Origin: Longimicrobiales bacterium
Lineage (GTDB): Bacteria > Gemmatimonadota > Gemmatimonadetes > Longimicrobiales > RSA9
DNA: 58,959 nt
Direction: 5' to 3'
NCBI GenBank assembly: GCA_036563975.1
Contig: DATCLK010000025.1
Coordinates: 1-58,959 of the forward strand
A program made the translations under genes and the position numbers. Each line of letters starts with the position of its first letter. Position 1 is the first letter of the stretch. Positions 3,395-32,537 of the stretch are shown here, piece after piece. Under the pieces are notes generated by a model that did not search any database, was not told where the DNA came from, and worked only from the letters and a program-made list of their open reading frames with translations.

Positions 3395-3679
3395 ATGGCG
3401 GATTACGAACGGATCACGGCTGCAGCGGCGCGGGAGGCGCTGCGGCTCGCGGAAGAGGTGTTGACAGCGCGTTTGCCGCTGCGGAAGGTGAGCGAGGACA
3501 GGCATTCGATCACGTTGACGGGCGCGGACGGGTCGGTCACGATCCGCGTGCATCGTCACGGACCGGATACGCTGGTGCACGCATCCACGGACCAGCTCCG
3601 CACGTCACGACTGGACCTCGAGACGCAGTATTACCTGAACCGGCTGCCGTACCAGCCCGGGGACGTGCCGAAGCGCTGA
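3395..3679 (+). CDS. hypothetical small protein (94 aa)
   Basis: Balanced, non-Ala/Arg-rich composition. GGAG-type RBS a few nt upstream. No recognisable family. Confidence 0.4.
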   Translation: MADYERITAAAAREALRLAEEVLTARLPLRKVSEDRHSITLTGADGSVTIRVHRHGPDTLVHASTDQLRTSRLDLETQYYLNRLPYQPGDVPKR

Positions 3680-5341: not shown

Positions 5342-5464
5342 GATGCTCCCGTCGGCGGAGTTGTTTTTTGGCGAGAATGCCTCGAAGCTAAGCGCCTGGG
5401 CGCCAAGATCGCAAGCGTGTATATTTGCAGGAATCCTTGTCAGCACGTGTGATGTGAGCTGGAG

Positions 5465-6994
5465 ATGGCGGAGACGTTTGCCGACCTGGGGTTGAAGCCG
5501 GAGCTGGTGGAGGCGGTGCGGGCCGCGGGATACGAGGCGCCGGCGCCATTGCAGCGGAGCGCTGTGCCGGTGCTGCGGCGGGGAGGCAACGCGGTGCTCT
5601 ACGCCTCGCCCGGCGCCGGGGTGGTGGCGGCGTACGGGTTGGGGCTGCTGGACCGGCTGGTCGGGACGGAACGGGGACAGGGGCCGCGGGCGCTGGTGGT
5701 GACCGGGAGTGATGCTGCGGCGGGGCGGATCGCGCTGTCGCTCGCGCGGCTGGGGCGGAGGGCCGGGGTGACCGTCGCGGCGGTGGGTCCAGGCTGGGCG
5801 CCCGGGGTTCCGGCGGTGGTGGTGGCGGCGGTGGACTCGGCGTTGCGGGAGGTGGAGGCGTCGCGGCTGAAGCTGGAGTCGCTGGAGGTGTTCGTCCTGG
5901 ATTCAGCGGCGGCGGTCTTCGCGCTCGGGTTCCGTGACATGGTGGAGACGCTCATGGTCTCGGTGCCGCGGGACGCGCAGCGCGTGGTGGTGACGGCGGA
6001 GGCGACGCCGGATGTGGAGAGTTACATCGAGCGGCACGTGCGGCGGGCGCTGTGGATCCCGGGCCGGCCCGCTGTGGGTGTGGAGGCGACGCCGACCCGG
6101 GGGGTGCTGCGGTACGCCGTCGCGCCGGATGGCCGCGAAGCGGAAGTGCTCGCGGAGCTGATCGCGAGCGGCGCGGTGCGGCTGCCGGCGGCGGTGCACT
6201 GCCGGACGAGGGCGGGGGCGGAAGCAGCGGCGCAGGCACTCGAGCTGCGCGGCTTCGCGCCGGGCGTCGTGGAGGCGGGAGTCGGGGGTGCGGTGTTCGG
6301 GCTGGCGGCCGAGCCCGGCGCCGCGGAGGCGGCGGAGGGACAGACGGTGGTGAGCTACGACGTGCCGTTCGATGCGGCAACGCTGGCGGAACGGCACGGC
6401 GGTGGAGGTGTGGTCCTGGTGCTCGCGCGCGAGTTGCCTCACCTGAGGCAGCTCGCGGCCGAGGCGGGCTTCACGCTCGAGGCGGTGGGCGGAGAGGCCG
6501 CGCTCGGGCGCGGGGACCTGGACGCGTATCGCGCATTGGTGCGCCGCGCGGTGCGCGAGGAGGACCTGGCCGCTCAGATCCTCGTGCTCGAGCCATTGCT
6601 CTCGGAGCTCTCGGCGGTGGAGGTCGCGGCCGCGCTTAGCGCGCTGCTGCGGCGGCGGGCGCCCATTGCCGCGGCAGCGCCCACGGCGGCAGCGCCGGCC
6701 GGCCCGGGGCCGCGACCGTGGGTCAGGCTGTTCGTCAGCGCGGGTCAGCGCGACCACATTCGCCCGGGCGACCTCGTGGGCGCGATCACCGGAGAGGCGG
6801 GCATCACGGGGGAGGAGGTGGGACGGATCGACATCCGGGACACGTTCTCCATCGTGGAGGTCGCGGCGGAGTCCGCGGAGCGCGTGATCCAGGCGTTGAA
6901 CGGGGTGACGCTGAAGGGGCGGAGCCTGCGCGTGGATTACGACCGCAGGCCGGCGCAAGCGCCACGCCGACCGCGCGGGGCCGGCGGGAGCTGA
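5465..6994 (+). CDS. DEAD-box helicase-like protein with degenerate catalytic motifs and a C-terminal DbpA-type RNA-binding domain (probable pseudo-helicase)
   Basis: N-terminus aligns to the DEAD-box Q-motif region (FADLGL...GYEAPAPLQ...AVP). The Walker A position reads SPGAG instead of GSGKT. The DEAD position reads VLDSAA. The SAT position reads TAEAT. The C-terminus ([49 protein letters not shown]...LKGRSLRV) matches the DbpA/DeaD RRM-like RNA-binding domain. The 509-aa frame is intact. Confidence 0.75.
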
Positions 6995-7034
6995 GGGCGG
7001 AGAGGAGTCGTCGCGAGGGCAGGCCAGAACGCAC

Positions 7035-7067
7035 GAGAGCCACGTCGCCGGGAGGGACGTGGCTCTC
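7035..7067. terminator. GC-rich perfect hairpin between convergent genes (candidate bidirectional terminator)
   Basis: Stems gagagccacgtc / gacgtggctctc (12 bp) around a 9-nt loop. Sits 40 nt after the helicase-like gene stop and 40 nt after the HU stop on the other strand. On the minus strand it is followed by GUGCGUUCU. Confidence 0.5.
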
Positions 7068-7107
7068 GTCGTCGCTGCGCCGCGCGAAACCCCGCTTCGG
7101 CGCTCCT

Positions 7108-7395
7108 CTAGCGCTTGACGGCGTCCTTGAGGCCCTTGCCAGCGCGGAAGGAGGGACTCGTCGTCGGGCCGATCCGGATCTCCTTACCGGTGCGCGGATT
7201 GCGGCCGGTGCGCGCCTTGCGCTTCTTGGTCTCGAAGGTGCCGAAGCCCGTGATCTGCACGCGGTCGCCCTTGCGGAGAGCGGTGGCGATGATGCCGCCG
7301 CTCACGCCGAAGAGCGCCTCGACCGCGCGGGACGCATCGGCCTTGCTCAACTTGCCCTTGTTGGCCAGGGCTTGGATCAGCTCGGACTTGTTCAT
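7108..7395 (-). CDS. hup: HU-family nucleoid-associated DNA-binding protein
   Basis: MNKSELIQALANKGKLSKADASRAVEALF...RVQITGFGTFETKKRKARTGRNPRTGKEIRI is a canonical HU/IHF fold sequence. ATG at 7393-7395. Confidence 0.9.
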   Translation of the reverse strand: MNKSELIQALANKGKLSKADASRAVEALFGVSGGIIATALRKGDRVQITGFGTFETKKRKARTGRNPRTGKEIRIGPTTSPSFRAGKGLKDAVKR

Positions 7396-9530: not shown

Positions 9531-11441
9531 TCAGTGCGCCGTGGTGACCTCCTCCTGGCCGTCGAAGCGCGCGCGCAAGACGGGCATCGGGCGCGGGCGC
9601 GTCATCGCCTCGGGCGAGAGGATCTCATCCAGCTCTTCGCGAGTCAGCCAGCCCTTCTCCAGTACCAGCTCGTAGACGCCCCTGTCGGTTTCCAGCGCTT
9701 CCTTGGCGACGGCGCTCGCGCGGTCGTACCCGATGAACGGGACGAGCGCGGTGACGATGCCGATGCTGCGCTCGAGCAGGTACCGGATGCGCTCGCGGTT
9801 CGCGGTGATGCCGAGCACGCACCGCTCGCGCAGCACGATGCAGGCCTGCACGAGCATGTCGATGGACTGGAAGATGTTGAAGGCGATGACGGGCTCGAAG
9901 ACGTTGAGCTGGAGCTGGCCGGCCTCGGCGGCCATCGTCACCGTGAGGTCGTTGCCGACGACCTGGTAGCAGACCTGGTTGACCACCTCGGGGATGACCG
10001 GATTGACCTTGCCCGGCATGATGCTGGAGCCCGGCTGCATGGGCGGCAGCGAGATCTCGCCGAGGCCCGCGCGCGGGCCACTGGAGAGCAGGCGGAGATC
10101 GTTGCAGATCTTGGAGAGCTTCGTCGCCACGCGTTTGAGCACGCCCGAGAGCTGGACGAAGGCGCCGGTGTCTGGCGTCGCCTCGACGAGGTCCGGGCTG
10201 GTGACGAGGGGAAGGCCGGTGATCTCGGAGAGGCGCTCGCGGACGAGGGGTGCATAGCGGGGGTCGGTGTTGATCCCCGTGCCGATGGCGGTTGCACCCA
10301 TGTTGATCTCGAGCATGAGCTTCGCCGCGTCCTGCAGCCGCTCGATGTCCTTGCCCAGCGTGACGCCGAAGGCGTGGAACTCCTGGCCGAGGGTCATGGG
10401 CACGGCGTCCTGGAGCTGGGTACGGCCGATCTTGACGATGTCCGCGAACTCGTCGGCCTTTTGCAGGAATGCGTCACGCAGGGCGGCGAGCGCGTCCACG
10501 AGCTCGGCGAGCGCCCAGGTCGCTGCGATCTTGAGCGCCGTGGGATAGACGTCGTTGGTGGATTGCGAGAGGTTGACGTGGTTGTTGGGGTGGACGATGT
10601 GGTACTCGCCGCGGCGCCGGCCGAGCAGCTCGAGCGCGCGATTCGCGATGACTTCGTTGGCGTTCATGTTGGTGGACGTGCCGGCACCGCCCTGGATGAC
10701 GTCCACGACGAACTGATCGTGCAGCGCTCCGCTGCGGATCTCGCGACACGCGGCGATGATGGCGTCGGCGATGCGTTCGTCGAGCAGGCCGAGCTCGCGG
10801 TTGGCAAGGGCGGCGGCCTCCTTGACGGCGGCGAGAGCGTTGATGAGGTGCGGGTACTGCGCGATGGTGATGCCGGTGATGGGGAAGTTCTCGACGGCGC
10901 GCAGCGTCTGGATGCCGTAGTATTCGCGGTCGGGGACCTCGCGTTCTCCGAGCAGGTCCTTCTCGCGCCGCAGCTCGCCGGACAGGTAGACCTGCTCGCG
11001 GCCGGCCAAGCGGGCGTTGGCGGCGCGCAGGCGACTCGCGATGATCTGGGCCGCGGCGATGGCGAGCCGGGCGTAGAGCGCGGGCCGCTCCTCGGCGATG
11101 CGCGTGATCGCCGCGCGAGGAAGCTCGACGGCCTCTACGGGTTCGGTGACGTAAGCGGATGTCGAGTGCGGATAGTCGTCCAGCAGCGTGCCCTCGGCGT
11201 AGGAATCGCCGGGGCCGAGCACCGCGAGGACCCGGTCGTGGCCGCGGTGCCGCTTGCGGATCTCGACCCGGCCGCGGATCAGGATGCCGAATTCGCGGCG
11301 GGGTTGGTTCTCGCGAAAGATGTAAGCGCCGGGTAGGTAGCAGATGACGCGTGCGAGCGAAGCCAGGTACTCGCGGTCCTCGGGCTGCACCTGCCGGCTG
11401 ATCACGTGGTTGCGGAGGGTCTTGAGGATGACGTCCTGCAT
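9531..11441 (-). CDS. aspA: cyclic-nucleotide-binding domain fused to class II aspartate ammonia-lyase (aspartase)
   Basis: Residues 1-150 carry a CAP-family cNMP-binding fold (GILIRGRVEI...LGPGDSYAEGTLLDDYPHSTSAYV). The remainder is aspartase/fumarase class II with the signature GSSIMPGKVNPVIPEVVNQ, plus KDLLGEREVP...YYGIQTLRAVENFPI. ATG at 11439-11441. Confidence 0.85.
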   Translation of the reverse strand: MQDVILKTLRNHVISRQVQPEDREYLASLARVICYLPGAYIFRENQPRREFGILIRGRVEIRKRHRGHDRVLAVLGPGDSYAEGTLLDDYPHSTSAYVTEPVEAVELPRAAITRIAEERPALYARLAIAAAQIIASRLRAANARLAGREQVYLSGELRREKDLLGEREVPDREYYGIQTLRAVENFPITGITIAQYPHLINALAAVKEAAALANRELGLLDERIADAIIAACREIRSGALHDQFVVDVIQGGAGTSTNMNANEVIANRALELLGRRRGEYHIVHPNNHVNLSQSTNDVYPTALKIAATWALAELVDALAALRDAFLQKADEFADIVKIGRTQLQDAVPMTLGQEFHAFGVTLGKDIERLQDAAKLMLEINMGATAIGTGINTDPRYAPLVRERLSEITGLPLVTSPDLVEATPDTGAFVQLSGVLKRVATKLSKICNDLRLLSSGPRAGLGEISLPPMQPGSSIMPGKVNPVIPEVVNQVCYQVVGNDLTVTMAAEAGQLQLNVFEPVIAFNIFQSIDMLVQACIVLRERCVLGITANRERIRYLLERSIGIVTALVPFIGYDRASAVAKEALETDRGVYELVLEKGWLTREELDEILSPEAMTRPRPMPVLRARFDGQEEVTTAH

Positions 11442-30122: not shown

Positions 30123-32537
30123 ATGATGCGAGACCTGCGTTTCGCCTTCCGTTCACTCGCGCGCCGGCCGGGGCTGCTCGCGACCGCGGTGCTCTCGCTC
30201 GCGTTCGGGATCGGCGTGAACGTCGTCCTGTACGGCGTCGTCGACGTGATCCTGTTCCGTGCGCCGCCGGGCGTGGTAGAGCCGGAGCGTGTGGTGCGGG
30301 TCGAGCCGGGCGCCGGCGCGGTGCCGGGTCTGCTCGCGCCCTCGGCGTCGCCCTCGGTGTCGTACCCGCAGTTCGAGGCGGCGCGCGCGGGCACGCGACT
30401 GTTCTCGGGCATCGCGGCGTACGCGCCCCTCAACGTGTCGGAGGGTGCGGGCGTCCAGGCGGACCGGCTGGACGCGATCCTCGCGAGCGAGGAGTACTTC
30501 GCGGTGCTGGGCGTGCGGCCGTTCGTGGGGCGGTTCTTCTCCGAGGAGGACGGGCGGGGCACGGCCGGCGCGCCGGTCGCGGTGATCAGCCACGAGTACT
30601 GGGAGCGGCGGTTCGGGCGCGACACGGGCGTGCTCGGCCGGACGCTGATGCTGAACGGCGTGGCCGTCACGATCGTGGGCGTCGCGCCGCCGGGGTTCAG
30701 GGGCGTGGACCTCGGGCGGCCGGACGTCTGGCTGCCGCTGTGGCTTGCGGGGACGGACGCGTTCGGCTCCCCATCCAGCTTCACCGGCCGCATGTTCTGG
30801 CTGCGCATGATCGGCCGGCTGCGGCCGGCTGTGCCAGCGGAGCGGCCGGAGGCGCTTTCCGAGCGCGTCGAGGCCCCGGGCGTGCCAGGCGGCGAGCTGG
30901 TGATCACAGCGCGCGAGCTGCGCACGCAGTTCGGCGCGGACCAGCGCGGCCGGAACCCGATCCCGCTCTGGCTGCTGGCAGTCAGCGCGACGGCGTTCCT
31001 CATTGCCTGCACGACCGTCGGCCATCTGCTCCTTGCCTCCGCCGTGGAGCGGGCGGGCGAGTTCGCGGTGCGCTTCGCGATGGGCGCGCGGACGCGCGAC
31101 ATCGTGCGGCTGCTCGTGGCGGAGGCCGCGATCGTTGCGGCGCTCGGCGCGGCGGTGGCGTTGCTGGCCGCGTTGTGGAGCACGCGCCTCCTGCGCGTGT
31201 TGCCGCTGCCGCCGATCGACGGGCTCGTTGACGGGCGCGTGGTCGTGCTTGCGGTGCTCGGGGCCGTGGCTGCGGTCGCGCTGTGCGTGGTTGGATCGGC
31301 GGTTTGGGTGCGCCGGCATGAGCTGGCGGACGCGTTGAAGGGCGCGCAGCGCTCGGCGAGCCGCGGCGGGCGGGTGCAGGCCGCGCTCGTCGCCGTGCAG
31401 GTCGCCGCGTGCGGCGCGCTGCTCATCTGCGGCGGGCTGTACGTGCGCAGCCTGCAGAAGGCGCTCGCGATCGATCCGGGGTTCGCCGTGGACGAGTTGC
31501 TCGTCGCGAGGGTGGACCGGCTGGGCGCGCTGGGTGGCGCATACGCGGCGGAGTTCCTCGCGCGGGGCGCCGAGCGCGTGCGGTCGCTGCCGGGCGCACG
31601 TGGTGCGGCACGGGCCAGCATTGTGCCGTTCTACTCGTTCACGACCTACGGCTACGAGGCGCAGGGCGGCGACGACCCGGATGCGGGCGGAGCGAGCGGC
31701 GTGACGGCGTTCGTCGACGCGGAGTACTTCCGCACGTTCGGCATCCCCCGGCGTGCGGGACGCGTGTTCGACGAGAACGACCGCGCGGGCGGCGAGCCGG
31801 TCGCGGTGTTGAGCCTCGCGATGGCGCGCGAGCTATGGCCGGGCGGCAACGCGCTGGGCCGCTGCATCGTGGTGTCCGTCGGGCCGGCGGCAGGCGAGTG
31901 CATCCGCGTCGTCGGCCTGGTGGACGACGTGCGGTTCCAGGACGTGACCGGCCCGAGCACGGCGGTCGTGTACCGGCCGATCGCGCAGCGGCCCGAGGGC
32001 ATGGCGCTGTCGCTCTTCATCCGGGGCGACGACGTGCGGCGTCTGGCTCCGGTGGTGCGCCGCGAGCTCCAGGCGCTGGATCCGGCCGCGCCGGCCGTGC
32101 ACGTCGAGCCGCTGGCGGCGCGGCTCCGGCCGCAGTTCCTGGAGTGGGAGGTCGCGGGCAAGGTGTTCGGCGCGCTGGGCGGCGTCACCGCGCTGCTCGC
32201 AGCGCTCGGGGTGTACATCGCGGTGTCCGGCATGGTCGGCCGGCAGACGCGCGAGCTGGGCGTGCGCGCGGCGCTGGGCGCAACGGCCGGCGCCATCCTG
32301 CGGCTCGTGCTCGCGCGCACGGCACGGCTTGCGGCGGCGGGCGTCATCGCGGGCGCCGTGCTCGCGTTCGCCGCGACGGGCGTGTTGCCGACGCCGCTGT
32401 TCGGGGTCGGGAGGCTGGATCCTCCCGCGTACGCCTTTGCGGGTGGCATGCTGCTGGCGTTCGCGCTGGCGGCGGCGTTGGCGTCGGCGACGAGGGCGGC
32501 GCGGGTGTCGCCGGCGGAGAGTCTGAGGGTGGAGTGA
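30123..32537 (+). CDS. ABC transporter permease of the duplicated FtsX/MacB-like orphan type (ADOP family)
   Basis: 804 aa. N-terminal TM helix, then a MacB-like periplasmic domain, then four TM helices, duplicated twice. No cognate ATPase is present in the window. Confidence 0.85.
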   Translation: MMRDLRFAFRSLARRPGLLATAVLSLAFGIGVNVVLYGVVDVILFRAPPGVVEPERVVRVEPGAGAVPGLLAPSASPSVSYPQFEAARAGTRLFSGIAAYAPLNVSEGAGVQADRLDAILASEEYFAVLGVRPFVGRFFSEEDGRGTAGAPVAVISHEYWERRFGRDTGVLGRTLMLNGVAVTIVGVAPPGFRGVDLGRPDVWLPLWLAGTDAFGSPSSFTGRMFWLRMIGRLRPAVPAERPEALSERVEAPGVPGGELVITARELRTQFGADQRGRNPIPLWLLAVSATAFLIACTTVGHLLLASAVERAGEFAVRFAMGARTRDIVRLLVAEAAIVAALGAAVALLAALWSTRLLRVLPLPPIDGLVDGRVVVLAVLGAVAAVALCVVGSAVWVRRHELADALKGAQRSASRGGRVQAALVAVQVAACGALLICGGLYVRSLQKALAIDPGFAVDELLVARVDRLGALGGAYAAEFLARGAERVRSLPGARGAARASIVPFYSFTTYGYEAQGGDDPDAGGASGVTAFVDAEYFRTFGIPRRAGRVFDENDRAGGEPVAVLSLAMARELWPGGNALGRCIVVSVGPAAGECIRVVGLVDDVRFQDVTGPSTAVVYRPIAQRPEGMALSLFIRGDDVRRLAPVVRRELQALDPAAPAVHVEPLAARLRPQFLEWEVAGKVFGALGGVTALLAALGVYIAVSGMVGRQTRELGVRAALGATAGAILRLVLARTARLAAAGVIAGAVLAFAATGVLPTPLFGVGRLDPPAYAFAGGMLLAFALAAALASATRAARVSPAESLRVE

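Follow-up and report, generated by a model that had tools for sequence, protein, structure and literature searches.

The locus and the architecture of its product

The stretch of DNA analyzed here, a contig of 58,959 nucleotides from a Longimicrobiales bacterium (in the following, the window), carries a complete gene for a homologue of DEAD-box RNA helicases, which faces a convergent HU gene (Table 1). In agreement with the initial annotation, the open reading frame list and the translation show an intact frame that starts with ATG and encodes 509 amino acids. Pfam searches with the window protein returned a highly significant match to the DbpA-type RNA-binding domain (RBD; PF03880, E=3.6e-27, amino acids 421-490, 70 of 72 profile positions), which had been described as well preserved. 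The DEAD domain (PF00270) scored just 28.6 bits with a cut-off of 26 (amino acids 28-181), and Helicase_C (PF00271) was not detected in this protein even at E<=1. Within the family, PF03880 was found in 70/70 members and PF00271 in 0/70.

Table 1. Features of the locus, with positions in the window and residue numbers of the encoded protein
Feature	Position	Strand	Amino acids	Description and basis
Complete pseudohelicase gene	5465..6994	+	1-509	509 codons and stop; ORF list, translation check, same-length, 94% identical orthologue P0001
RecA1-like domain	5465..6064	+	1-200	Fold kept, catalytic motifs lost; PF00270, phmmer against Hera/DbpA RecA_N
Retained Q-motif region	5474..5554	+		F5 and GYEAPAPLQ ending at Q30; conservation in 121 relatives, both also in canonical sisters
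Degenerate motif I (Walker A)	5603..5626	+	47-54	ASPGAGVV versus AxTGxGKT; alignments
Degenerate motif Ia	5705..5722	+		GSDAAA versus PTRELA; phmmer, MAFFT columns
Degenerate motif II	5894..5911	+	146-149 (DSAA)	VLDSAA versus VxDEAD; phmmer, MAFFT columns
Degenerate motif III	5993..6007	+	177-179 (TAE)	TAE(AT) versus SAT; phmmer, MAFFT columns
Shrunken RecA2-like domain	6065..6499	+	201-345	CshA 5ivl profile alignment, canonical-sister alignment
Putative DeaD/CshA-type dimerization domain	6500..6664	+	346-400	Three helices; PF25399, CshA alignment, model helices
DbpA-type RRM-like RNA-binding domain	6716..6949	+	418-495	PF03880; includes conserved SLRVDYDR(K/R) end
Hairpin	7034..7068			Perfect stem of 13 bp, located where the stop codons of the pseudohelicase and HU genes converge; sequence

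The DeaD dimerization domain (PF25399) reached 17.7 bits in the window protein, below the cut-off of 23 bits, and was found at E<0.01 in 32 of 70 family members with a best value of 2.8e-6. The family profile aligns across the dimerization domain of CshA (5ivl), and the AF2 model places helices at amino acids 351-397 of this region. When searched against the PDB, the profile matched CshA (3e-45), DbpA (1e-42) and Hera (7e-37), and the best structures in Foldseek were likewise DbpA (7pli first), CshA and Hera, with a probability of 1.00. The AF2 model has an overall pLDDT of 86, with values above 90 for RecA1 and of ~96 for the RBD. Considering these profile E-values and the hundreds of orthologues described below, the similarity to DEAD-box proteins is far beyond chance, and the two RecA-like domains are homologous to DEAD-box cores. 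The end-to-end alignment with DbpA/DeaD-like helicases noted earlier is thus supported by the CshA, DbpA and Hera matches, but the predicted order of RecA1, RecA2, dimerization domain and RBD assigns the protein to the DeaD/CshA/Hera type and not to DbpA proper.

The gene is found in a conserved setting, as synteny with the convergent HU gene and an upstream aminotransferase or symporter gene is kept across the phylum, down to 36-40% identity. An operon partner can be rejected, since in every locus the gene is flanked by a divergent gene on one side and a convergent gene on the other. The hairpin beyond its stop codon has an RNA folding energy of -38.4 kcal/mol (z = -5.3 compared to shuffled sequences) and is probably a shared bidirectional terminator, a role that we infer since it lacks a U-tract. 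No RNA families were found in the window with Rfam, and a promoter scan of the window gave nothing usable. Conserved blocks are visible in an alignment of the region upstream of the gene. Eight related loci contain genes of canonical RhlE-like helicases at a distance of 3-4 kb, and these helicases possess neither an RBD nor a dimerization domain. Among the matches listed, there was no canonical RBD-bearing helicase from Gemmatimonadota.

State of the helicase motifs

The helicase motifs were read from residue alignments to Hera 2gxq and DbpA 7pli obtained with phmmer, from the mapping of MAFFT columns and from the alignment of the profile with CshA. These approaches reject the possibility that the motifs are intact and merely shifted. 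In motif I, both the Lys and the Thr of the P-loop are replaced by Val in the window protein (GAGVV versus GSGKT). The counts at the Lys position among 121 close relatives are 86 for Val, 17 for Thr, 11 for Leu and 2 for Lys. Motif Ia commonly reads PTxExA across the family, with loss of the RNA-contacting Arg, and motif Ib of the window protein reads AVDS instead of TPGR. The D-E dyad of motif II is present in none of about 205 family members, DG being the most frequent reading.

The second RecA domain is about 24-31 residues shorter than in canonical relatives. A deletion of 16 amino acids with respect to the canonical sisters takes out the QxxR helix, the sequence AAEPGAAEA has replaced motif V (TDVAARGLD), and a deletion of eight amino acids cuts motif VI from HRIGRxGRxG to ERHG, whereby the arginine fingers are lost. 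The domain still contains a motif IV-like AVHCRT and the strand SYDVPFDA; in the stump formed by amino acids 266-295, identity within the family amounts to just 13%.

The nucleotide pocket has been partly retained. Q30, G50 and G52 are found in 121/121 and F5 in 102/121 close relatives, and 13/29 genome representatives and about 10/96 cluster representatives keep both GxGKT and the first Asp of motif II. GxGKT is the form of the Longimicrobium-type orthologues. The most divergent members lack even the Q motif and GxG. The initial annotation, which regarded all motifs as degenerated, therefore holds for motifs I, Ia, Ib, II, III, V and VI, but the Q motif and both glycines of the P-loop are retained. 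Its changed motif Ia and lost DEAD motif were both recovered in the alignments, the latter as DSAA. It was also right about the loss of the Walker A and SAT motifs, although the aligned residues are GAGVV rather than SPGAG in the former and TAE rather than EAT in the latter.

Hydrolysis of ATP would no longer be feasible, since the motif II Glu, motif V and the motif VI arginine fingers are missing and, in this lineage, the P-loop Lys and Thr are missing as well. Likewise, a canonical closed RNA clamp is not to be expected, because the protein has lost the QxxR helix, motif V and the GG loop as well as the Arg residues of motifs Ia and Ib.

Distribution, origin and selective constraint of the family

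The degeneration is common to about 210 clusters at 50% identity, and all named ones belong to the Gemmatimonadota. Neither the Glu of the DEAD motif nor motifs V and VI occur in any of the 29 full-length Gemmatimonadota genome loci or in about 205 metagenomic relatives, and orthologues ranging from 94% down to about 35% identity share the same motif losses. In contrast, 11/11 non-Gemmatimonadota matches checked, with identities of at most 33%, are fully canonical. The nearest canonical relatives, from Solirubrobacter, Planctomycetales and Thermomicrobiales, combine the domains DEAD, Helicase_C, DeaD_dimer and DbpA.

In a neighbor-joining tree computed from BLOSUM distances, an approach that can suffer from long-branch attraction, the 96 degenerate representatives form a single clade apart from 11 canonical helicases, their nearest relatives. 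The domains have diverged to different extents. While the RBD is 41-57% identical to that of the canonical sisters, which share 40-64% among themselves, RecA1 is 30-36% identical (52-69% among the sisters) and RecA2 19-24% (47-65%). We propose that the degenerate family arose once, early in the Gemmatimonadota, and that it has been kept by selection; this proposal forms part of the explanation favored below and shares its strength.

Purifying selection acts on every domain of the protein. The dN/dS ratios amount to 0.15 and 0.21 for the whole gene, to 0.15-0.21 for RecA1, 0.18-0.27 for RecA2 and 0.12-0.20 for the dimerization domain, and to 0.05 and 0.03 for the RBD. The values for the whole gene are comparable to those of the neighboring genes for HU (0.06-0.11), a histidine kinase (0.19-0.20) and aspartase (0.14). 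The median identity in the family is 71% for the RBD and 58% for the dimerization domain. The constraint is strongest on these two domains, followed by a remodelled RecA1 that has acquired family-specific basic and aromatic residues. Conserved residues of the family that are absent from the canonical sisters include R39 in 93/96, R173 in 82/96 (with Lys in another nine), W111 in 76/96 and, in RecA2, H326 in 88/96 sequences. R38 is also among the family-specific conserved residues of RecA1, and K136 is a further gained, invariant basic residue. R39, K136 and R173 are predicted to lie on that side of RecA1 which points away from the ATP site, since all of them precede beta-strands in the AF2 secondary structure; this placement follows from strand topology rather than from measured coordinates.

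Our results show that catalytic residues have been lost with the fold kept and that the protein is maintained by selection, which are two of the criteria for pseudoenzymes given in PMC9539457. The earlier proposal of a maintained pseudoenzyme instead of a decaying pseudogene is supported by these dN/dS values and by the phylum-wide orthologues, none of which carries normal motifs in the 29 genome loci.

Putative function and comparison with known systems

We consider it reasonably probable, though far from certain, that the protein is a catalytically dead descendant of a DeaD/CshA/Hera-type helicase, with a single early origin in the Gemmatimonadota, which now acts as an ATP-independent, probably dimeric RNA-binding protein anchored by its RBD. 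The finding that the constraint is strongest on the RBD and the dimerization domain, and then on RecA1, makes an ATP-independent dimeric RNA binder the likeliest mechanism. The two RBDs of a dimer would anchor the protein to structured RNA; by analogy with its helicase relatives, rRNA or pre-ribosomal RNA would be the most plausible target. The dead core may serve as a scaffold or offer a new binding surface. The protein could thus function as a tether, a placeholder or a chaperone, and unwinding would be left to coexisting canonical helicases, for example those of the RhlE-like type. The roles suggested in the initial annotation, an RNA chaperone or a competitor of active helicases, are likewise putative. 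A protein of this kind would not necessarily be toxic, since other helicase-dead DbpA mutants had no phenotype in Escherichia coli (PMC8536315).

The retained Q-motif Gln and Phe, the P-loop glycines and the GxGKT of 13/29 genome representatives hint at a nucleotide-binding role, which a pure scaffold model leaves unexplained. By analogy with ATP-binding pseudokinases, the protein could be a switch that binds but does not hydrolyze nucleotides, with an adenine pocket holding ATP, ADP or AMP and its occupancy gating the binding of RNA or of a partner. The invariance of Q30, G50 and G52 and the frequent F5 would fit such a switch, as would the first Asp of motif II that accompanies GxGKT. We nevertheless regard it as unlikely, as the P-loop Lys and the Mg-coordinating Thr have become hydrophobic in the window protein and most relatives, the most divergent members have lost the Q motif and GxG, and the pocket residues could serve folding alone.

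Alternatively, the protein might antagonize or regulate an active RBD-bearing helicase, either by occupying the same RNA site via its near-normal RBD or by forming heterodimers via its dimerization domain, thereby dampening ribosome assembly or RNA decay or controlling their timing. The divergence of its RBD is no greater than that between orthologous canonical helicases, canonical DEAD-box genes coexist in related genomes, and the helicase-dead DbpA variant R331A acts on 50S assembly of E. coli in a dominant-negative manner (PMC4911913, PMC8536315). However, the coexisting canonical helicases that were found are RhlE-like and have neither an RBD nor a dimerization domain, the matches listed contain no canonical RBD-bearing helicase of the phylum, and the toxicity of R331A needs a long-lived closed state (PMC8536315) which the family protein cannot form. 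An antagonist of this kind is accordingly a doubtful candidate.

More speculatively, and in our opinion improbable, the helicase may have lost its motor and been rebuilt as an assembly factor for ribosomes or RNA that is gated by nucleotides or independent of ATP. Here the adenine pocket would act as a sensor of ATP, ADP or AMP that does not hydrolyze its ligand, the new RecA1 surface (R38/R39, W111, K136, R173) would engage RNA or a partner by a mode known for no DEAD-box protein, and the dimer would bridge two RNA sites selected by the RBDs.

It is very hard to envisage that the protein remains an ATPase or helicase through non-canonical residues, for instance a relocated lysine such as K136. 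The new conserved basic residues R39, K136 and R173 could be taken in this sense, but fold topology suggests that they face away from the nucleotide site, and no member of the family retains the Glu of motif II, motif V or either arginine of motif VI. Finally, the view that we are dealing with a pseudogene in decay or a misassembly in one genome, for which nothing speaks beyond the motif losses themselves, is excluded by purifying selection on every domain at the level of neighboring genes (0.15-0.21 for the whole gene), together with the intact 509-codon frame, the confident AF2 model (pLDDT 86) and the same losses in orthologues from 94% to about 35% identity.

DEAD-box proteins constitute the largest family of RNA helicases, and their ATP-independent activities, such as tethering, annealing and chaperoning via accessory domains, are hard to tell from catalysis. 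The family described here represents a natural experiment in which a phylum has long kept the targeting and putative dimerization modules and two RecA folds while the motor was deleted. It could reveal what an RBD-tethered dimeric DEAD-box scaffold does alone, whether sensing nucleotides can be the sole task of the Q-motif pocket, and in which way the Gemmatimonadota handle steps of ribosome assembly or RNA decay that are carried out elsewhere by DeaD/CsdA-type enzymes. In databases, family proteins are labelled 'DEAD/DEAH box helicase' or 'ATP-dependent RNA helicase DeaD', which as a statement of activity is almost certainly wrong. Our search of the literature on bacterial DEAD-box pseudoenzymes or pseudohelicases and on DEAD-box proteins of Gemmatimonadetes yielded just Utp25, Deinococcus radiodurans PriA and general surveys, so that no earlier family of bacterial DEAD-box pseudohelicases appears to have been described. 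Surveys in which DEAD-box proteins are defined by their DEAD and Helicase_C domains (PMC3093544) miss the family by construction.

The helicases DeaD/CsdA, CshA and Hera share the predicted domain order and the domain lengths of the family, and the profile can be aligned with CshA 5ivl over its full length. In contrast to them, the family lacks the ATP-hydrolysis motifs and most RNA-clamp motifs, and it has a shorter RecA2, no detectable Helicase_C and conserved residues of its own.

DbpA of E. coli and YxiN of Bacillus subtilis are 23S rRNA helicases specific for hairpin 92. The nearest solved RBDs are those of DbpA (7bbb/7pli) and YxiN (2g0c), with E values of about 1e-7, and DbpA is the best match in both NCBIfam (NF008744) and Foldseek. 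However, DbpA has no dimerization domain, and the family protein is predicted to be catalytically dead. In DbpA, the basic patch R92/R96/K102 of RecA_N contacts hairpin 92 (PMC8536315); among the 121 relatives, the R92 position is Ala in 98, and the R96 and K102 positions are basic in 51 and 69, respectively. Since this patch is not conserved, specificity for hairpin 92 cannot be assumed. A strict DbpA orthologue targeting hairpin 92 is not supported either, considering the unconserved patch, the predicted dimerization domain and the NCBIfam score of 127 bits as compared to the equivalog cut-off of 524. The engineered DbpA R331A resembles the family as an RBD-bearing DEAD-box protein without turnover, and illustrates the effect of an inactive tethered core on 50S assembly (PMC8536315, PMC4911913). 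R331A still binds ATP and RNA and locks in the closed state, whereas the natural family lacks the motifs needed for closing.

Two natural proteins are comparable in their loss of catalysis. As cited in PMC9539457, PriA of D. radiodurans is a bacterial SF2 helicase homologue that has lost ATPase and unwinding activity and kept nucleic-acid binding, but it is a DNA replication-restart protein of unrelated architecture, is not a DEAD-box protein and is confined to a single lineage. Utp25/Def, the eukaryotic pseudohelicase of the SSU processome, combines a DEAD-box fold and vestigial motifs with maintenance by selection and a presumed non-catalytic role related to RNA or ribosomes (PMC9539457). 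Utp25/Def is of independent, eukaryotic origin, has neither a DbpA-type RBD nor a DeaD-type dimerization domain, and is backed by mutational evidence (PMC9539457), while the family of the Gemmatimonadota is known from its sequences and predicted structure.

Domain content and degeneration of the helicase core

Since the G+C content of the window is ~72%, long spurious ORFs are common in it; despite this, the ORF encoding the pseudohelicase is a genuine gene, with the intact reading frame described in the initial annotation. Pfam searches of its product returned the DbpA-type RNA-binding domain (RBD; PF03880, E=3.6e-27, aa 421-490) and, weakly, the DEAD domain (PF00270, 28.6 bits with a cut-off of 26, aa 28-181). 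The DeaD dimerization domain (PF25399, aa 346-400) was sub-threshold, and Helicase_C (PF00271) was absent even at E<=1. When each of the 70 family members of our alignment A1 was scanned in the same way, DbpA was found in 70/70, DEAD in 70/70, DeaD_dimer in 32/70 and Helicase_C in 0/70. The top NCBIfam match of the protein is DbpA, at 127 bits versus a cut-off of 524, and the protein fails the DbpA equivalog test.

The core motifs were read from residue-level alignments to Thermus thermophilus Hera and Escherichia coli DbpA, with columns mapped in a 122-sequence MAFFT alignment. Motif I reads ASPGAGVV (canonical AxTGxGKT), motif Ia GSDAAA (PTRELA), motif Ib AVDS (TPGR), motif II DSAA (DEAD) and motif III TAE (SAT), while the Q motif is kept (F5 and GYEAPAPLQ, ending in Q30). 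The earlier description of degenerate motifs, including the changed motif Ia, is thus borne out in substance, but its registers for Walker A (SPGAG) and for SAT (EAT) needed small corrections, and its statement that all motifs had degenerated does not extend to the Q motif and the P-loop glycines, which survive.

The A1 profile aligned end to end with Geobacillus kaustophilus CshA (5ivl; 3e-45, positions 3-393 to residues 2-424), a match spanning the CshA dimerization domain, and also matched DbpA (1e-42) and the Hera core (7e-37). Aligned to CshA and, directly, to the four nearest canonical helicases, RecA2 has lost the helix bearing the QxxR motif through a 16-residue deletion, carries AAEPGAAEA in place of motif V (TDVAARGLD), and retains only ERHG of motif VI (HRIGRxGRxG), the second half of which was removed by an 8-residue deletion. 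AVHCRT (the motif IV strand), the strand with 'YDVP' and, past motif VI, the 'PRE' segment are kept. A confident AlphaFold2 model built from A1 (mean pLDDT 86.2; at least 90 at 310 residues) predicts two alpha/beta domains, three helices at aa 351-397 and an RRM-like domain at the C terminus, and its top Foldseek matches in the PDB are DbpA, CshA and Hera. The nearest canonical relatives combine DEAD, Helicase_C, DeaD_dimer and DbpA domains; together with the fold matches, this architecture identifies the protein as a derivative of the DeaD/CsdA-CshA-Hera type, and not of DbpA proper.

Conservation of the degenerate core and selection

A word-indexed search yielded 775 relatives, of which the best 120 are full-length, 45-94% identical, without any precomputed PF00271 match and, where a source is named, from Gemmatimonadota or Longimicrobiales MAGs. 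An exhaustive HMMER scan of 50%-identity representatives gave 210 clusters at E<=1e-30, and the first canonical helicase among the matches listed was a Thermomicrobiales protein (P0243) at 32% identity. A position-specific tabulation of ~205 full-length members found the D-E dyad at motif II in none, DG being the commonest reading, and the Walker A Lys in only ~11. In species-representative genomes, DEAD, motif V and motif VI were missing from 29/29 full-length Gemmatimonadota loci among the matches listed, including Longimicrobiales, Longimicrobium spp. and Candidatus Kutchimonas. The 11 matches checked outside the phylum (Actinomycetota, Planctomycetales, Acidobacteriota, Desulfovibrio; all <=33% identity) were canonical at every motif. 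The initial annotation had proposed looking for the same losses in orthologues; they are shared, and the degeneration of the core is conserved phylum-wide.

In a BLOSUM-distance NJ tree, the 96 degenerate representatives group in a single clade apart from 11 canonical helicases; the method is crude and open to long-branch attraction. GxGKT is kept in scattered lineages (13/29 genome loci, including the Longimicrobium group, and ~10/96 representatives), and the most divergent branch has neither GxG nor the Q motif. Most simply, the catalytic Glu and RecA2 motifs V/VI would have been lost once, long ago, and the P-loop Lys repeatedly thereafter. In a deeply divergent branch of the family (P0245, P0247, P0249, P0252 and P0254, with P0240, P0244, P0250 and P0255 also named), the Q-motif Gln and P-loop glycines are gone and the RBD is strong; the adjoining branch has GSGKE as P-loop. 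This suggests that the nucleotide pocket eroded progressively, at rates differing by lineage.

Nei-Gojobori dN/dS was calculated against orthologues at loci L084 (94% identical) and L085 (75%). Respectively, the whole gene and RecA1 each gave 0.15 and 0.21, RecA2 gave 0.18 and 0.27, the dimerization domain 0.12 and 0.20, and the RBD 0.05 and 0.03. As these are on par with neighbouring genes (HU 0.06-0.11, histidine kinase 0.19-0.20, aspartase 0.14) and lowest in the RBD, purifying selection on the dead core is of ordinary strength and that on the RBD very strong, in agreement with the earlier view of a maintained protein with a well-preserved C-terminal domain. A decaying pseudogene is refuted by these values and by the phylum-wide orthologues.

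Median identity within the family falls from 71% in the RBD to 58% in the dimerization domain, 51% in RecA1 and 37% in RecA2, whose deletion stump (aa 266-295; 13%) is essentially free to vary. Compared with the canonical sisters, the nearest fully canonical helicases, the RBD is 41-57% identical (sisters inter se, across phyla, 40-64%), RecA1 30-36% (52-69%) and RecA2 19-24% (47-65%), so that both RecA domains have diverged much beyond the RBD. Several residues are conserved in the family and different in all canonical sisters: R38 (76/96 representatives), R39 (93/96), N42 (canonically Asp), W111 (76/96, at the site of the former GG RNA-binding loop), K136 (68/96; 121/121 among closer relatives), R173 (82/96, with Lys in 9; canonically Thr), H326 (88/96), P199, P377 and R396. 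By the secondary structure of the model, R38/R39, K136 and R173 lie just ahead of or at the start of the P-loop, motif II and motif III strands, three central beta-strands. In the ASCE P-loop fold, these strands start on the opposite side from the nucleotide site, and from this topology these residues would form a new basic patch on that side of RecA1. The selection-protected parts are the RNA-binding RRM, the dimerization module and the remodelled RecA1.

Genomic neighbourhood

The pseudohelicase gene stands alone, with a divergent neighbour on one side and a convergent one on the other. Close relatives share the order Na/Ala symporter (-), pseudohelicase (+), HU (-), GAF-histidine kinase (+), cNMP-aspartase (-). 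HU is convergent and immediately downstream in nearly every sufficiently long Gemmatimonadota locus, down to 36-40% pseudohelicase identity; the pairing may be functional or may be old synteny. A strong hairpin separates the two stop codons; although it lacks a U-tract, it resembles bidirectional terminators of the high-GC type.

Features of the window and RhlE-like genes at genome loci of relatives (L numbers)
Feature	Position	Strand	Remarks
94-aa ORF	window 3395..3679	+	no Pfam match
Conserved block	window 5419..5425		upstream intergenic; GTATATT
Conserved block	window 5437..5452		upstream intergenic; TTG(A/T)CA(A/G)CACGTGTGA; palindrome CACGTG ~12-28 nt before ATG
Pseudohelicase gene	window 5465..6994	+	ATG start, 509 aa
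Hairpin	window 7034-7068		between converging stops of pseudohelicase and HU; perfect 13-bp stem (CGAGAGCCACGTC ... GACGTGGCTCTCG); dG -38.4 kcal/mol; z = -5.3
HU-family gene (PF00216)	window 7108..7395	-	convergent to pseudohelicase; same pairing in nearly all sufficiently long loci of L001-L035
cNMP-binding domain fused to class II aspartase/fumarase	window 9531..11441	-	636 aa; N-terminal cyclic-nucleotide-binding, Lyase_1, FumaraseC_C
tRNA-Glu(CTC) call	window 30301..30392	+	ARAGORN, 92 nt
RhlE-like gene	L015:933-2561	-	DEAD-box motifs
RhlE-like gene	L022:1446-3056	-	DEAD-box motifs
RhlE-like gene	L027:983-2260	-	DEAD-box motifs
RhlE-like gene	L030:1807-3714	-	DEAD-box motifs
RhlE-like genes	L018, L023, L024, L032		DEAD-box motifs

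The 122-bp intergenic region 5' of the gene contains blocks conserved across orthologues, which could be promoter or operator elements of the divergent gene pair; a sigma-70 consensus scan gave no match. The unusual cNMP-aspartase fusion, 76-95% identical in related loci, suggests cNMP-regulated aspartate or fumarate metabolism. The 94-aa ORF has unannotated counterparts of 94-96 aa in the same position adjoining the symporter in L001, L002, L003 and L084. Just past the symporter, the 5.4-Mb relative carries a KaiB and KaiC-like ATPase gene pair (L001:6439-8285, -) that is absent from the matching position in the window. Rfam at the gathering threshold found no tRNA or other RNA family anywhere in the window, and the tRNA-Glu(CTC) call is doubtful, or the tRNA atypical.

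Putative function and comparison with known DEAD-box proteins

By established DEAD-box enzymology, ATP hydrolysis would not be credible, because the motif II Glu, motif V and the arginines of motif VI are missing and, in the window protein, the P-loop Lys and Thr as well; likewise, the bipartite RNA clamp of the closed state should be unable to form without the Ia/Ib Arg residues, the GG loop, QxxR and motif V. The best-supported reading, which we consider reasonably probable, is an ATP-independent, probably dimeric RNA-binding protein. Its RBDs would anchor it to structured RNA, by analogy with helicase relatives most plausibly rRNA or pre-ribosomal RNA, where it may act as a tether, placeholder or chaperone. 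The DbpA RecA_N patch contacting hairpin 92 is not conserved in the family, and hairpin 92 specificity should therefore not be assumed.

A nucleotide-binding switch would account for the invariant Q30, the P-loop glycines, the conserved F5 and the lineages retaining GxGKT, but given the Val/Val replacement in the window protein and the complete loss of pocket motifs in the most divergent branch, we regard it as unlikely. It is equally doubtful that the protein antagonizes a canonical RBD-bearing helicase, as no such helicase from Gemmatimonadota was present among the matches listed. Canonical RhlE-like helicase genes do occur 3-4 kb from the pseudohelicase in eight more distant Gemmatimonadota loci, upstream and on the opposite strand, with GTGKT, DEAD, SAT and HRIGRTGRAG all canonical and no RBD, so that at least those eight genomes encode active DEAD-box enzymes alongside it; the window has no gene of that kind. 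In E. coli, DbpA R331A is dominant-negative because it stays locked for long in the closed state on pre-50S particles; DbpA mutants that are helicase-dead in other ways show no phenotype (PMC8536315). These data put limits on the idea of a competitor: the family appears unable to close, and simple RBD-mediated occupancy need not be toxic. A cryptic ATPase, with hydrolysis persisting despite the motif losses, is very unlikely.

By homology and fold, the window protein is a member of the DEAD-box superfamily; the catalytic features that define a DEAD-box helicase are lacking. Relatives with a named source carry the labels 'DEAD/DEAH box helicase', 'ATP-dependent RNA helicase DeaD' or 'DbpA RNA binding domain-containing protein', and the current annotation of the family as an ATP-dependent helicase is almost certainly wrong. 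In the main phylogenetic survey of DEAD-box proteins in bacteria, both DEAD and Helicase_C domains were demanded (PMC3093544), which would have left the family out for want of the latter. Neither a bacterial DEAD-box pseudohelicase nor this Gemmatimonadota family came up in full-text literature searches. According to the paper describing Utp25, the pseudohelicases proposed up to 2022 numbered only two, Deinococcus radiodurans PriA and Utp25 itself (PMC9539457). While pseudoenzymes per se are unsurprising, this is an ancient, phylum-wide, well-conserved, motor-less DEAD-box protein with targeting and dimerization modules kept, and a clean, testable system for ATP-independent functions of the DEAD-box family. 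It has its architecture in common with DeaD, CshA and Hera, and conceptually it comes closest to Utp25, the DEAD-box pseudohelicase of eukaryotes.
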